From Candidatus Omnitrophota bacterium (GTDB lineage: Bacteria > Omnitrophota > Gorgyraeia > Gygaellales > Profunditerraquicolaceae), in the NCBI GenBank assembly GCA_022710715.1, contig JAKLGJ010000001.1:170041-234040 (forward strand): a DNA stretch of 64,000 bases. The letters run 5' to 3'. The translations under genes were made by a program, and so were the position numbers. Within the stretch, counting starts at the first letter, position 1, and each line of letters begins with the position of its first letter. The notes below the pieces were generated by a model. The model was not told the DNA's origin and did not search any database. It saw only the letters and a program-made list of their open reading frames with translations. Positions 3,427 to 6,145 of the stretch are shown piece by piece.

Positions 3427-4102
3427 TGATTGACCGCAGTAGTTGTAAAATTTGGCTATATGCTGGGAAATCCTGTCAGGCCGGCAGTACGTCTGTCTTT
3501 AAGACGGAACGTGACAATCTGCCGGATAGGGACAATCAGCAGGAAAGACCTGAAGGAGGTCTCCGTGAAGATAGAAACAGGCTATTACTTAGCTGGTTTT
3601 GCGGATGGGGAAGGGAGTTTCAACATATCCTTTCGTCCGAGGCAAGACTATAAATCACCATGGAAAGTTTCTTTGTGTTTCAATATCTCTCAGAAAGATA
3701 AAGTTATTCTTGCATTGTATAAGCGCTATCTAGGCTGTGGAACATTGCGAGGCAGGCCTGATGGAGTCTGGTACTTTGAAGTGAATAATTTCGAATCGAT
3801 CAGAGAGAAAGTAATACCTTTTTTTAGAAGGTATCCATTTTTATCAGCTAAGAAAAAAAGAGATTTCGCAAAATTCTGCGAACTCGCGCGGTTGATTAAA
3901 AATGAGAATCACCTGACAAAAGAGGGGATTAAGAAAATACTTGAAATACGAAGAGATATGAATGATGGTGGCAAACGCAAGTATAGCGAGATGGAGATCT
4001 TAAGCAAGCTTCAGGAATCCTCAGAGACTATACGCCAAACTCCTGGTCAATCAGGAGATGATATAGTCCGGTCTTCCGGGAAACCGGAAGTTAACATGAA
4101 CG
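3427..4102 (+). mobile_element. Group I intron #1 in 23S, inserted after ...GTAACTAT (E. coli about L1917); carries a LAGLIDADG ORF
   Basis: Exon collinearity with E. coli breaks between GTAACTAT and AACGGTCC. The 5' exon ends in U and the intron ends in G. It contains the group I P7 strands (TCAGAGACTATACG at about 4020-4035, GATGATATAGTCC at 4060-4075) and a P9-like hairpin GGTCTTCCGGGAAACCGGAAG. Confidence 0.8.
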
Positions 4103-4113
4103 AACGGTCCTAA
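3565..4113 (+). CDS. LAGLIDADG homing endonuclease (single-motif, about 182 aa), intron-encoded; start probably GTG 3565 (the ORF frame is open from 3430)
   Basis: Motif YYLAGFADGEGSF (LAGLIDADG) near the N-terminus, preceded by SD AGGAGG 5 nt upstream of GTG. The reading frame runs through the intron P7/P9 core and 11 nt into the downstream exon (stop TAA at 4111-4113). Confidence 0.75.
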   Translation: MKIETGYYLAGFADGEGSFNISFRPRQDYKSPWKVSLCFNISQKDKVILALYKRYLGCGTLRGRPDGVWYFEVNNFESIREKVIPFFRRYPFLSAKKKRDFAKFCELARLIKNENHLTKEGIKKILEIRRDMNDGGKRKYSEMEILSKLQESSETIRQTPGQSGDDIVRSSGKPEVNMNERS

Positions 4114-4116
4114 GGT

Positions 4117-4308
4117 TAACGTAATAACGCTAGCCTGCTTGGTAGTAATACCAAAGAATAATTACCAACTATATCGGTGAAGTCCTCGGTTGTATAGAGG
4201 ATAATACCGAGGGAAGTCGTAAATGACCCCGTAGAGACTACACGTTGGCTCCTGCGTAAAGCAGGATGAAGATATAGTCCACGCCAATAGTAATATTGGA
4301 TTAACGTG
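4117..4308 (+). mobile_element. Group I intron #2 in 23S (ORF-less, 192 nt), inserted after ...CCTAAGGT (E. coli about L1931)
   Basis: Exon AACGGTCCTAAGGT (4103-4116) is followed by 192 nt absent from E. coli, then AGCGAAATTCCTTGT. The 5' exon ends in U and the intron ends in G. P7 strands CGTAGAGACTACACG and GATGAAGATATAGTCC are present. Confidence 0.7.
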
Positions 4309-4878
4309 AGCGAAATTCCTTGTGGGGTAAGTTCCCACGCGCACGAATGGTGTAACAACCTGATCGCTGTCTCAAAGAGGGACTCGGCGAAATTGTAGTG
4401 GCGGTGAAGATGCCGTCTACCCGCATCAAGACGAAAAGACCCCAGAACCTTTACTGCAGCCTACCATTGGGTTTTGGTTTAATTTGTGTAGCATAGGTGG
4501 GAGACTTTGAAGCCCGGGCGCTAGCTCGGGCAGAGTCGCAATGTGAAATACCACCCTGATTGGACTAAAATTCTAACCTTCCGACCTGAATCGGCCGGGG
4601 GGACAGTGATAGGCGGGCAGTTTGACTGGGGCGGTTCCCTTCTAAAAAGTAACAAAGGGGCCCAAAGGTTGGCTCAAGTCGGTCGGCAATCGACTTAGGA
4701 GTGTAAGCGCATAAGCCAGCTTGACTGCAAATCCGACAGGACGCGCAGGTACGAAAGTAGGGGCTAATGATCCGGTGGTGAAATGTGGAATTGCCATCGC
4801 TCAACGGATAATAGGTACTCTGGGGATAACAGGCTTATCGGGCTCGAGAGTTCACATCGACAGCCCGGTTTGGCACCT

Positions 4879-5297
4879 CAACATCATGGGGTGGTACGGG
4901 AGCAATCCTGTACATGCATTGGCTAATAACGGTGGAGTCTTCTCCCGGCGCACGCGCCGGGATTGATAATACCGTGGGAAGTCTGCAGAACATAAGCAGT
5001 TATTTCAGTGGTCTTTTCTCTTGGTGACAAAGTCTCAATCGATAGGTCTAATACTTTGATCTCGAATACATACACTAATGGATGGTTCAAAGTTATTAGG
5101 ATGTCTTTTGCTGTTCTTTGCTCATCATGAGAAAGCCATGTTCTGTATGACCCCGTAACGACTGATAGTACGGACGCACGATCCGAGCGTTATACGTACT
5201 TGAGATAGCAGAATGTGTTGCTATCATACGCCAACTCCGCTTACTGCAAACGGAAGAAGATATAGTCTAATCCCATCCGAAAGGATGGACAAGATTG
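4879..5297 (+). mobile_element. Group I intron #3 in 23S (ORF-less, 419 nt), inserted within GGCACCT^CGATGTCGGCTC (E. coli about L2499)
   Basis: Collinearity break inside the conserved peptidyl-transferase-centre sequence. The 5' exon ends in U (4878) and the intron ends in G (5297). The 3' core GAAGAAGATATAGTCTAATCCCATCCGAAAGGATGG (P7 plus P9 hairpin) lies just before the 3' splice site. The AT-rich interior has no intact ORF. Confidence 0.7.
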
Positions 5298-5401
5298 CGA
5301 TGTCGGCTCATCCTATCCTGGGGCTGGATAAGGTCCCAAGGGTCCGGCTGTTCGCCGGTTAAAAGGGTACGCGAGCTGGGTTCAGAACGTCGTGAGACAG
5401 T

Positions 5402-6145
5402 AAATTGACCGTTGCTGTCTTTAAATCTGGCTATGTGCTGGAAAATCTGAGTATCTCATATTACTAATTGACGAAATAGTCTCTACATGATACTATGCAG
5501 TCGGGAGTGATAATATATGAGTGCAGATCACCAGCAGGAAAGGCCAAGCGGGATAGCATCATTCTATGTCAGTGGTTTTGTCGACGGAGAAGGCTGCTTT
5601 TCTATAACAATTCAGAAAAGTAAAAATGTGAAATTAGGGGTACAGGTTATTCCCGAGTTTCACGTCAGCCAACATCAACGCAGGACTGAAGTTCTTGAAG
5701 CAATCAAGGGTAAGTTTGGTTGTGGCTATATCAAAGCAAACAATCCGAATAACCCCAAAGATCTTACTTCAGTATACGTTGTTCGTAATTTAGCTGATCT
5801 TCGTGATAAAATCGTGCCGTTTTTTAAGAAATATCCTTTGTATTCGTCAAAGCAGCAGGACTTTGAGAAGTTTGCAAAAGTCGTGCATGCTATGAGTAAA
5901 AAGGACCATCTTGAAAAGAACGGTTTAAGCAGAATATTGAAACTATCATTCTCGATGAATGACAGCGGTAGGTATCGTAAACTGAAAATAGAAGATGTGC
6001 TGTCCAGTTTGGAATCCTCAGAGACTATACGCCAGAAGCTTGCTGTAAAGCAAGTTTAAGATATAGTCCGAACTGCATGGCGACATGCAGAGATTGGCAG
6101 AAATGCCCAATCCTTTTACATGACAATGTAGAAGTAACATAATTG
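5402..6145 (+). mobile_element. Group I intron #4 in 23S, inserted at CGTCGTGAGACAGT^TCGG (the I-CreI-type L2593 site); carries a LAGLIDADG ORF
   Basis: Break exactly at the classical L2593 homing site. The 5' exon ends in U (5401) and the intron ends in G (6145). Intron start AAATTGACCG resembles intron #1 start TGATTGACCG. P7 strands TCAGAGACTATACG (about 6018-6031) and TTTAAGATATAGTCC (6057-6071) are present. Confidence 0.8.
5517..6059 (+). CDS. LAGLIDADG homing endonuclease (single-motif, 180 aa), intron-encoded
   Basis: Motif FYVSGFVDGEGCF with ATG start and SD GGGAGTGA upstream. The C-terminal ...SSLESSETIRQ is encoded by the same 24-nt P7 core sequence as in intron #1. Size and architecture resemble I-CreI-family homodimeric enzymes. 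Confidence 0.8.
   Translation: MSADHQQERPSGIASFYVSGFVDGEGCFSITIQKSKNVKLGVQVIPEFHVSQHQRRTEVLEAIKGKFGCGYIKANNPNNPKDLTSVYVVRNLADLRDKIVPFFKKYPLYSSKQQDFEKFAKVVHAMSKKDHLEKNGLSRILKLSFSMNDSGRYRKLKIEDVLSSLESSETIRQKLAVKQV

Follow-up and report, generated by a model that had tools for sequence, protein, structure and literature searches.

The locus examined here raises the question of what has come to lie inside a 23S ribosomal RNA (rRNA) gene whose conserved sequence is broken in four places, and whether the gene could still give rise to a continuous RNA. The gene sits in a 64,000-nucleotide (nt) stretch of a contig from Candidatus Omnitrophota bacterium (assembly GCA_022710715.1, contig JAKLGJ010000001.1, forward-strand positions 170,041 to 234,040), which we call the window and to which all coordinates refer unless another contig is named. 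We conclude with high confidence that this gene, the single 23S gene seen here, contains four interrupting group I introns, at the positions equivalent to Escherichia coli U1917, U1931, U2500 and U2604.

Sites of insertion within the gene for 23S rRNA

The inserts were located by reading the sequence, and the spliced gene was aligned to E. coli rrlH. The features that carry the argument are the following, with the introns designated I1 to I4 in 5' to 3' order:

1464..6441, + strand: 23S rRNA gene, five exons (about 2950 nt in total) and four introns, matched by the Rfam family LSU_rRNA_bacteria
3427..4102, + strand: I1, group I intron at L1917 in the helix 69 loop, 676 nt, with a LAGLIDADG gene in P6
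4103..4116, + strand: exon 2, a 14-nt mini-exon, AACGGUCCUAAGGU, equivalent to E. coli 1918-1931
4117..4308, + strand: I2, group I intron at L1931, 192 nt, without an open reading frame (ORF)
4879..5297, + strand: I3, IA-like group I intron at L2500 in the peptidyl-transferase central loop, 419 nt, no intact ORF
5402..6145, + strand: I4, group I intron at L2604, adjoining A2602, 744 nt, with a LAGLIDADG gene

Removal of the four inserts in silico restores a continuous host 23S sequence of 2951 nt, which aligns with rrlH from end to end at 69.4% identity and with no large gaps at the junctions; the 30 nt flanking every junction are then identical or nearly identical to E. coli. The final exon bases before I1, I2, I3 and I4 align to U1917, U1931, U2500 and U2604, respectively, such that all four upstream exons end in U, and all four inserts end in G. 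The joined exons read GTAACTAT^AACGG at L1917, TAAGGT^AGCGAA at L1931, GGCACCT^CGATG at L2500 and GACAGT^TCGGTC at L2604 (^ marks the junction), and related genomes carry the same exon sequence uninterrupted. The boundaries of I1, I2 and I4 are unambiguous; that of I3 is ambiguous by one base (a C on either side), a terminal G resulting only if the intron is placed after U2500. Exon 2, short as it is, provides both CGGUC, with which I1 forms P10, and AGGU, the exon strand of the P1 helix of I2. Because the gene is interrupted, the LSU model of Rfam mis-aligns past about position 4950, in the 3' third of the 23S sequence.

An initial annotation of this DNA, made by reading its sequence, had described four inserts of 676, 192, 419 and 744 nt with an upstream U and a terminal G, and had proposed that the exons rejoin into a continuous 23S; the coordinates, lengths and boundaries prove exact, and the spliced gene aligns to rrlH with no gap at any junction. 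Its site names hold for L1917 and L1931, whereas "L2499" is better given as L2500 and "L2593" is displaced by 11 nt: the I-CreI-type site L2593 (AACGU^CGUGAG) is uninterrupted here, and I4 lies 11 nt downstream of it, after GAGACAGU. Nor does the suggested position of an insert next to the sarcin-ricin region in domain VI hold, since U2604 falls in the peptidyl-transferase region of domain V, adjoining A2602.

Ribozyme cores and their covariation

Positions 3380-6200 were scanned permissively with Rfam, in which the Intron_gpI family (RF00028) has a gathering score of 50 bits. Intron_gpI matched each insert exactly once and the exons not at all. The match and the pairings at the two splice sites (P1 with the 5' exon, P10, of 4-5 base pairs, with the 3' exon) are, for each intron:

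I1: 34.0 bits (E 2.7e-6), below the gathering score; P1 AACUAU/GUAGUU; P10 GACCG/CGGUC
I2: 58.6 bits (E 1.2e-13), above the gathering score and a full-length model match; P1 AGGU(UA)/UAGCCU; P10 CGCU/AGCG
I3: 27.4 bits (E 2.6e-4), below the gathering score and confined to the 3' half of the model; P1 CACCU/GGGUG; P10 ACAUC/GAUGU
I4: 43.6 bits (E 3.7e-9), below the gathering score; P1 AGACAGU/GCUGUCU; P10 GACCG/CGGUC

All four inserts can be folded with P1 bearing a U.G wobble at the 5' splice site, a terminal G, P10 and the core helices P3, P4, P6, P7, P8 and P9. Inspection of homologues showed P3, P4, P6 and P7 to be paired in every one, with compensatory changes in P3 and P7. The P1 wobble is invariant in 21 sequences of the I4 family, 11 of the I3 family and four of the I1 family, and P10 pairs in 95% of the alignment cells of the I4 family and in 78% of those of the I3 family, where its spacing shifts by 1-2 nt. 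At the level of motifs, the 64 kb contain three copies of AGAGACTANACG, the 5' strand of P7, one each in I1, I2 and I4 (none expected by chance), its place in I3 being taken by CGACTGA (RNA CGACUGA); of GATATAGTC, the P7' strand, there are exactly four copies, one in each insert (0.2 expected). The longer form AAGATATAGTC is not in I1, which has TGATATAGTC.

The Rfam search and the manual P1-P10 folding that the initial annotation had asked for thus came out in its favor: every insert is matched, the helices form, and for I1, I3 and I4 they are backed by compensatory changes. Of its more specific claims, a P9-type hairpin after P7' is present in all four inserts, and the P7' motif likewise in its shorter form; an identical P7 5' motif in every insert is not, given the different strand in I3. 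The group I interpretation as a whole is therefore supported by the covariance-model match, by P1, P10 and the terminal G, and by compensated helices.

The strongest covariation comes from I4. A search of species-representative genomes with HE4, the protein encoded by this intron, returned 30 loci, nearly all of them 23S genes with an insert at L2604. For 21 distinct L2604 introns, which were aligned, a structural model was written by hand, comprising P1 and P10 (as above), P3, P4, P5, P5a, P6, P7, P9 and P9.1. RNAalifold, run on the ORF-free core of the family, recovered P1, P3-P6, P9 and P9.1 independently and missed P7 and P10, which are pseudoknotted; the latter two were added by hand and checked by counting pairs. 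Across the 21 sequences 97.7% of cells are paired, and 22 of the 57 pairs show two-sided changes, values that none of 500 shuffles reached; when the partner strand was slid by 1-3 columns, pairing fell to 31-41%. Compensation is evident, for example, in P7 (GACUAU/AUAGUC versus GACUGU/ACAGUC) and P3 (UCUGGC/GCCAGA versus UUCGGC/GCCGAA), and a P8 hairpin is formed from unrelated sequences in 20 of the 21 introns. The L2604 intron at L013:72-811 has no P8 hairpin, with just 6 nt from P3' to J8/7 (the segment joining P8 to P7); either the copy is defective or the assembly may be at fault.

Since I3 has the weakest Rfam score, L2500 homologues were gathered from two collection scans, and their P6 loops were excised before alignment. 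The resulting model contains, besides P1 and P10, P2, P3, P4, P6, P7 (GACUG/UAGUC), P7.2 and P9. In the 11-member family 94.7% of cells pair, and compensation is seen in 13 of 47 pairs, a result that none of 500 shuffles equalled (a smaller six-sequence version of the test was also made); the peripheral hairpins P2, P5, P7.1, P7.2, P8 and P9 fold in each sequence from differing letters. The P7.1/P7.2 extension, an IA-type feature, makes I3 appear IA-like, a description rather than a formal subgroup assignment. Two L2500 introns elsewhere, L017:4901-5781 in an Omnitrophota metagenome-assembled genome (MAG) and L037:2438-2731 in a Patescibacteria MAG, start with U and end in A immediately before CGAUGUCGG, and no shift of their boundaries gives a terminal G.

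One part of I3 stands apart from this core:

4984..5148, + strand: insert in the P6 loop of I3, 165 nt, a possible remnant of a decayed LAGLIDADG_2 gene

The insert is missing from short-P6 homologues (introns of 267 nt in L012 and 269 nt in L035), and the L2500 intron of L017 has an intact LAGLIDADG_2 ORF at the equivalent position. A tblastn comparison of that L017 protein with the insert gave a weak match (E 0.005 over 55 amino acids at the C-terminus) containing an internal stop, part of which is the RNA-constrained J6/7-P7 segment. The 5' and 3' ends of the insert are conserved in L008, L038, L040, L047, L057 and L058. It is possibly a gene remnant or a structured extension of P6; I3 either lost its endonuclease gene or never carried one.

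For I1, in which P3, P4, P6 and P7 are all paired, the comparison comprises four L1917 introns: that of the window and those of L008, L026 (249 nt) and L028 (355 nt). P1, P3, P4, P6 and P7 pair in all four sequences, with P3, P8 and P9 compensated in the homologues, and the P6 insert measures 469 nt where it holds an endonuclease gene and 37 or 73 nt where it does not. The one homologue of I2, in L008, is 194 nt long and scores 50.3 bits with Intron_gpI, above threshold. Read directly from the two sequences, P8 (UCCUGC/GCAGGA versus UCCUAU/AUAGGA) and the pairing at the 3' end (CACG/CGUG versus CAUG/CAUG) have changed in a compensatory manner.

Comparison of the four cores with one another points to two ribozyme families. 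I1 and I4 are closely similar over the first ~50 nt past the guide sequence; have nearly identical P3, P4, P6 and P7; and share, letter for letter, a 24-nt block covering P6'-J6/7-P7-J7/3-P3' (GGAATCCTCAGAGACTATACGCCA; 4014..4037 and 6011..6034, + strand). GACCG serves as the P10 partner in both, since CGGUC is found in either 3' exon. On these sequence grounds we regard I1 and I4 as one family. I2 and I3 have P4-P6 and J6/7 sequences in common (AUACCGxGGGAAGUC...GACCCCGUA) and therefore constitute a second.

The resemblance between I1 and I4 is accompanied by a change in target. Their guides, GUAGUU and GCUGUC, differ at three positions, each matched by a difference in the exon (AACUAU versus GACAGU), so that three P1 pairs have changed in step with the exons. 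A Solirubrobacteraceae MAG, L028, carries an ORF-less L1917 intron (L028:4116-4470) with an L2604-type P5 and P9-P9.2 periphery. By simple pairwise identity over few sequences, its 5' core is 81% identical to the L2604 intron of the same genome (L028:5898-6621); in the 3' core, identity with L2604 introns is 69-76% (66% in the case of the outlying L024) as compared to 54-55% for other L1917 introns. This mixture suggests switching or conversion between the two sites, and that the L1917/L2604 switch may have happened more than once. We advance, tentatively and with slightly less than even confidence, a joint reading: that the L1917 and L2604 lineages are one family moved by guide retargeting, and that multi-intron 23S genes are a trait widespread in Omnitrophota and in part passed on vertically there.

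Endonuclease genes, splicing model and rival explanations

Two of the introns contain a protein-coding gene:

3565..4113, + strand: HE1, single-domain LAGLIDADG_1 protein, 182 amino acids, GTG start, TAA stop at 4111-4113 in exon 2
5517..6059, + strand: HE4, single-domain LAGLIDADG_1 protein, 180 amino acids

Both products match Pfam PF00961 well above its cut-off of 23.1 bits (75.8 bits for HE1, 98.8 for HE4); are 36% identical to each other; and keep the acidic residue of the LAGLIDADG motif (LAGFADGEG in HE1, VSGFVDGEG in HE4). Their relatives in the Protein Data Bank (PDB) are halves of I-OnuI, I-SmaMI and I-PanMI and the single-domain entries 5gkk and 3e54. The GTG of HE1 lies five bases past AAGGAGG, and L008 has an ATG in the same place with the same Shine-Dalgarno sequence. 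HE4 has a ratio of nonsynonymous to synonymous substitution of 0.14 relative to its L008 orthologue, indicating purifying selection on the protein. The HE4 frame begins in the 3' strand of P5a, runs through P5', P4', P6, P7, P3' and P8, and stops in J8/7; its peptides QQERP and ESSETIRQ come from sequence of the ribozyme core that hardly varies, and since ESSETIRQ recurs in HE1 this stretch is dual-coding.

The intron-less targets would be CCGTAACTATAACGGTCC at L1917 for HE1 and GTGAGACAGTTCGGTCTCTATC at L2604 for HE4, the latter as found in L041 or L043. Read directly, the L2604 target GAGACAGT^TCGGTCTC (5394-5401 joined to 6146-6153) is symmetric about the insertion point at six of eight positions, which would fit a homodimeric enzyme. 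In E. coli and in Actinomycetota loci the right arm of this target is GGTCCC and less symmetric. Taken together, HE1 and HE4 appear to be intact LAGLIDADG enzymes, with an endonuclease activity and specificity predicted from their sequences.

These features suggest how the locus might work. After transcription, each intron would fold into a P3-P9 group I core, with its internal guide sequence pairing to the last 5-7 nt of the upstream exon and the exon-final U held in the U.G wobble of P1. A free guanosine, bound in P7, would attack the 5' splice site; the terminal G of the intron would then occupy P7, P10 would align the 3' exon, and the exons would be ligated. All four introns would have to splice to yield a continuous mature 23S of ~2950 nt. 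HE1 and HE4, presumably as homodimers, would promote homing by cleaving 23S alleles that lack the intron at its pseudo-palindromic site of insertion, and I2, which has no endonuclease gene, and I3 may persist since the host needs them to splice. Catalysis and exon ligation in vivo are thus predicted properties of these RNAs.

Several observations weigh against this account. Three of the four inserts (I4, I1 and I3) score under the 50-bit gathering threshold, and the one that exceeds it, I2, could be compared with a single homologue, that of L008. That the inserts splice is something we infer, and that guanosine would suffice, with no protein taking part, is an assumption. Within I1, the HE1 frame meets no in-frame stop: it crosses the 3' splice site and ends at the TAA in exon 2, as it does in L008 too, and the complete ORF therefore exists only on the unspliced precursor, a message made from the excised intron being left without a stop codon. 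Because the HE1 and HE4 frames overlap much of the ribozyme core, translation may conflict with folding. Finally, a search of a metagenome collection for the ligated L2604 junction joined to a lineage-typical exon 5 yielded 25 contigs in which the L2604 site is empty, at 84-95% exon identity, and none of the 25 is near enough (<=95%) to be the spliced rRNA of the window; at such identities they represent intron-less relatives rather than splicing.

How the inserts leave the RNA can be explained in other ways, of which one accepts them as true group I introns and supposes that some are not autonomous and need a maturase, in the form of the intron-encoded LAGLIDADG protein, or a host factor. A maturase-like role is reported for the 23S intron protein of Thermotoga neapolitana (cited in PMC3984707), the HE1 and HE4 frames traverse the ribozyme core with both under constraint, and the 165-nt P6 insert of I3 has no clear role. 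The cores nevertheless look complete, and ORF-less kin exist (the 192-nt I2, a 249-nt intron at L1917 in L026 and a 267-nt intron at L2500 in L012), in which the ribozyme persists without a protein of its own; we consider protein-dependent splicing unlikely, if worth keeping in mind. A more radical proposal is that the inserts are intervening sequences (IVSs) removed, for example by RNase III, without ligation, leaving a fragmented 23S, or else expansion segments that are retained. Fragmenting IVSs are known in bacterial 23S rRNA and are suspected for some insertions in bacteria of the Candidate Phyla Radiation (CPR) (PMC11270868). Against this, each of the four inserts fits the group I model and shows the P1 wobble, P10 and terminal G; they lie at the helix 69 loop and within the peptidyl-transferase core rather than at 23IS2 or 23IS4, which that study equates with the known sites of RNase III-cleaved IVSs, and in the 3' region, where the same study places its group I sites (23IS6-14). 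The marks of an IVS (an extended stem-loop in place of a peripheral hairpin, a location in the 5' part of 23S, no ribozyme core) are not seen, and breaks or extra RNA at such core positions would be unlikely to be tolerated. We regard removal or retention of this kind as very improbable and reject an RNase III-type IVS, given the conserved single-stranded or core sites 1917, 1931, 2500 and 2604 and the group I cores. Group II introns were likewise rejected: neither Rfam scan, of the inserts or of the window, returned a group II family, and the ORFs encode LAGLIDADG proteins, not reverse transcriptase.

It might also be supposed that the arrangement is an assembly chimera or a non-functional rRNA pseudogene, for the source is evidently a metagenome and rRNA regions are prone to misassembly. 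An identical HE4 protein is, however, encoded by five further public contigs, from three European Nucleotide Archive (ENA) assemblies and two Logan runs, which agree with the window at 99.7-100% identity, introns and unique flanking genes included; for the ENA contigs (ERZ761563, ERZ27257455 and ERZ795054) the agreement extends over 6-10 kb and takes in the downstream gene. The closest genome match, L008, titled "Candidatus Omnitrophota bacterium", is a distinct MAG (16S fragment 93.3% identical, downstream TPR gene 42% identical in amino acids), and its whole 23S gene is collinear with that of the window at 86% identity, with all four introns in place (exons 87-100% identical, introns 78-85%). 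The exons, moreover, are conserved and intact, in an operon laid out as normal (16S-Ile-Ala-23S-5S). Agreeing independent assemblies, L008 and the intact exons led us to reject both the chimera and the pseudogene, which we hold to be extremely improbable. Four group I introns within this 23S gene are the reading we retain, and their conservation in L008 is consistent with an origin before the window and L008 lineages split.

Occurrence among relatives and comparison with known systems

The rRNA operon lies on the + strand of the window and comprises 16S, tRNA-Ile(GAT), tRNA-Ala(TGC), 23S and 5S genes, as identified by Rfam:

1-907, + strand: 16S rRNA gene, 5' end cut off, model positions 632-1533 visible
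6607-6723, + strand: 5S rRNA gene, by Rfam match

Elsewhere the window holds ordinary chromosomal genes (RecG, SMC, AlaRS, SecDF, HtrA, TrpE, LeuC), and from similarities and MAG labels the host is probably a member of Omnitrophota, a phylum of the Planctomycetes-Verrucomicrobia-Chlamydiae (PVC) group and not of the CPR. Just 3' of the operon, a 1313-amino-acid TPR-containing ORF contains a 315-nt tandem repeat (9225-10142, 2.9 copies, 89% matches), to which the offset self-matches (87-94% identity) in the L003-L005 comparisons are due. The visible 16S part of the window (model positions 632-1533) has no intron; a group I intron is present in the 16S gene of L008 (L008:529-1283, Rfam 54.4 bits) and in that of Desulfobacterales HSG2 (L035:1409-1706).

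Related 23S genes carry zero, one, two or three introns, at L1923, L1931, L2500, L2593 and L2604. L016 and L020 have the L2604 intron only; L014 has L1923 and L2604; L017 has an insert at or beside L1931 plus L2500 and L2604; and L012 has L2500, L2593 and L2604. Among the contigs with an empty L2604 site, L043 is intron-free over the whole gene, L048 and L041 over nearly all of it and L061 to position 2805; others have only an L2500, L1931 or L2593 intron. Such patchy occupancy fits what mobile introns produce. Sixteen loci with an Omnitrophota label carry the L2604 intron, as do three loci labelled "uncultured Planctomycetales" and three Actinomycetota-labelled MAGs, and multi-intron 23S genes occur in a number of Omnitrophota-labelled and some Actinomycetota-labelled MAGs.

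Further insertions were encountered in this material. In the Omnitrophota MAG L012, the L2593 and L2604 introns are separated by an 11-nt exon (L012:2891-4010). The 23S gene of HSG2 has at least five insertions: one or more between 1931 and 1951, one near 2257-2264, one at 2500 and one near 2511. Three unrelated MAGs have an insert at an additional site just 3' of CGAUGUCGGCU, about E. coli 2511-2513 (L010:5428-5785, L029:3316-3624 and L035:7402-7688), the last of these inserts scoring 51.2 bits with Intron_gpI.

If several introns per 23S gene are indeed a widespread trait of Omnitrophota, intron-rich rRNA would not be special to the CPR. The locus places a PVC-group phylum among the few non-CPR bacteria with several predicted self-splicing introns in one rRNA gene, and shows that L2500 and L2604, hitherto described in archaea and the CPR, have introns elsewhere too. 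Such genes disrupt rRNA annotation and PCR-based surveys. The locus also yields two compact, apparently intact LAGLIDADG enzymes, predicted to be of the homodimer type and to target 23S sequence that is universally conserved, and a natural pair of related ribozymes with differing guides in one transcript. Both could help in studying how introns are retargeted and in what order folding and splicing take place as ribosomes assemble. The understanding of how group I introns work is unchanged by the finding.

Our literature search found no paper mentioning group I introns in Omnitrophota, and a search on L2604 group I introns gave nothing relevant. The nearest classical precedent (Haugen et al., 2007; PMC1995217) is the 23S gene of Synechococcus sp. 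C9, which was reported to be the first bacterial gene known with more than one group I intron and has three that encode LAGLIDADG proteins, at L1917, L1931 and L2593. As in the window, several group I introns share one gene; the same 14-nt exon separates L1917 from L1931; and single-motif LAGLIDADG genes of ~160-190 codons lie in peripheral loops and run into the ribozyme core, in introns of similar size (743 and 748 nt versus 676 and 744 nt). The window differs in having four introns rather than three, with the 3' ones at L2500 and L2604 instead of L2593; an ORF-less L1931 intron; a HE1 frame that ends in the downstream exon and not in P9; and a PVC-group rather than a cyanobacterial host.

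Insertions are still more numerous in CPR bacteria, with up to 16 per rRNA gene (Tsurumaki et al., 2024; PMC11270868). There, LAGLIDADG_1 genes occur at 1917, 1931, 1952, 2593, 2604 and 2657, and group I introns are described at 23IS9-11, 13 and 14 as having no earlier report in other bacteria; from the order in which that study lists its sites, 23IS13 should be position 2604. CPR 23S genes thus resemble the window in carrying many group I introns biased to the 3' part, position 2604 included, but the window host is not a CPR bacterium, and the L2604 intron extends to Omnitrophota-, Planctomycetales- and Actinomycetota-labelled loci. In archaea (Nawrocki et al., 2018; PMC6125680), group I introns of subgroup IA3 occupy LSU/2500 and LSU/2593, and those of subgroup IB4 occupy LSU/1923 and LSU/1931. 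Sites 2500 and 1931 are common to the two systems, and the P7.1/P7.2 extension of I3 is typical of IA-type introns, although the window belongs to another domain of life. The initial annotation's view that multiple rRNA introns are rare in free-living bacteria thus has to be qualified, such genes being known from Synechococcus C9 and the CPR and seen here in Omnitrophota and Actinomycetota MAGs.

HE1 and HE4 resemble homodimeric LAGLIDADG enzymes of the I-CreI type (PDB 3e54, "rRNA intron-encoded endonuclease", and 5gkk) in having one LAGLIDADG_1 domain of ~180 amino acids, the acidic residue of the motif (GFADGEG, GFVDGEG), pseudo-palindromic targets and a location in rRNA introns; by sequence, however, they are nearest to halves of monomeric I-OnuI-family enzymes (E ~1e-44), not to I-CreI. 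For the relationship between the L1917 and L2604 introns, a parallel is offered by intron spread in fungal nuclear rDNA (Bhattacharya et al., 2005; PMC1299323), where related ribozymes likewise have site-adapted guides; the introns there are fungal and nuclear, whereas those described here are bacterial and carry endonucleases. The locus is therefore a well-supported and not surprising example of a phenomenon described in cyanobacteria and the CPR: its mechanism is not new, and what it adds is the host phylum, the use of two sites (L2500 and L2604) outside the CPR and archaea, and an intron count above that of the classical non-CPR cases.

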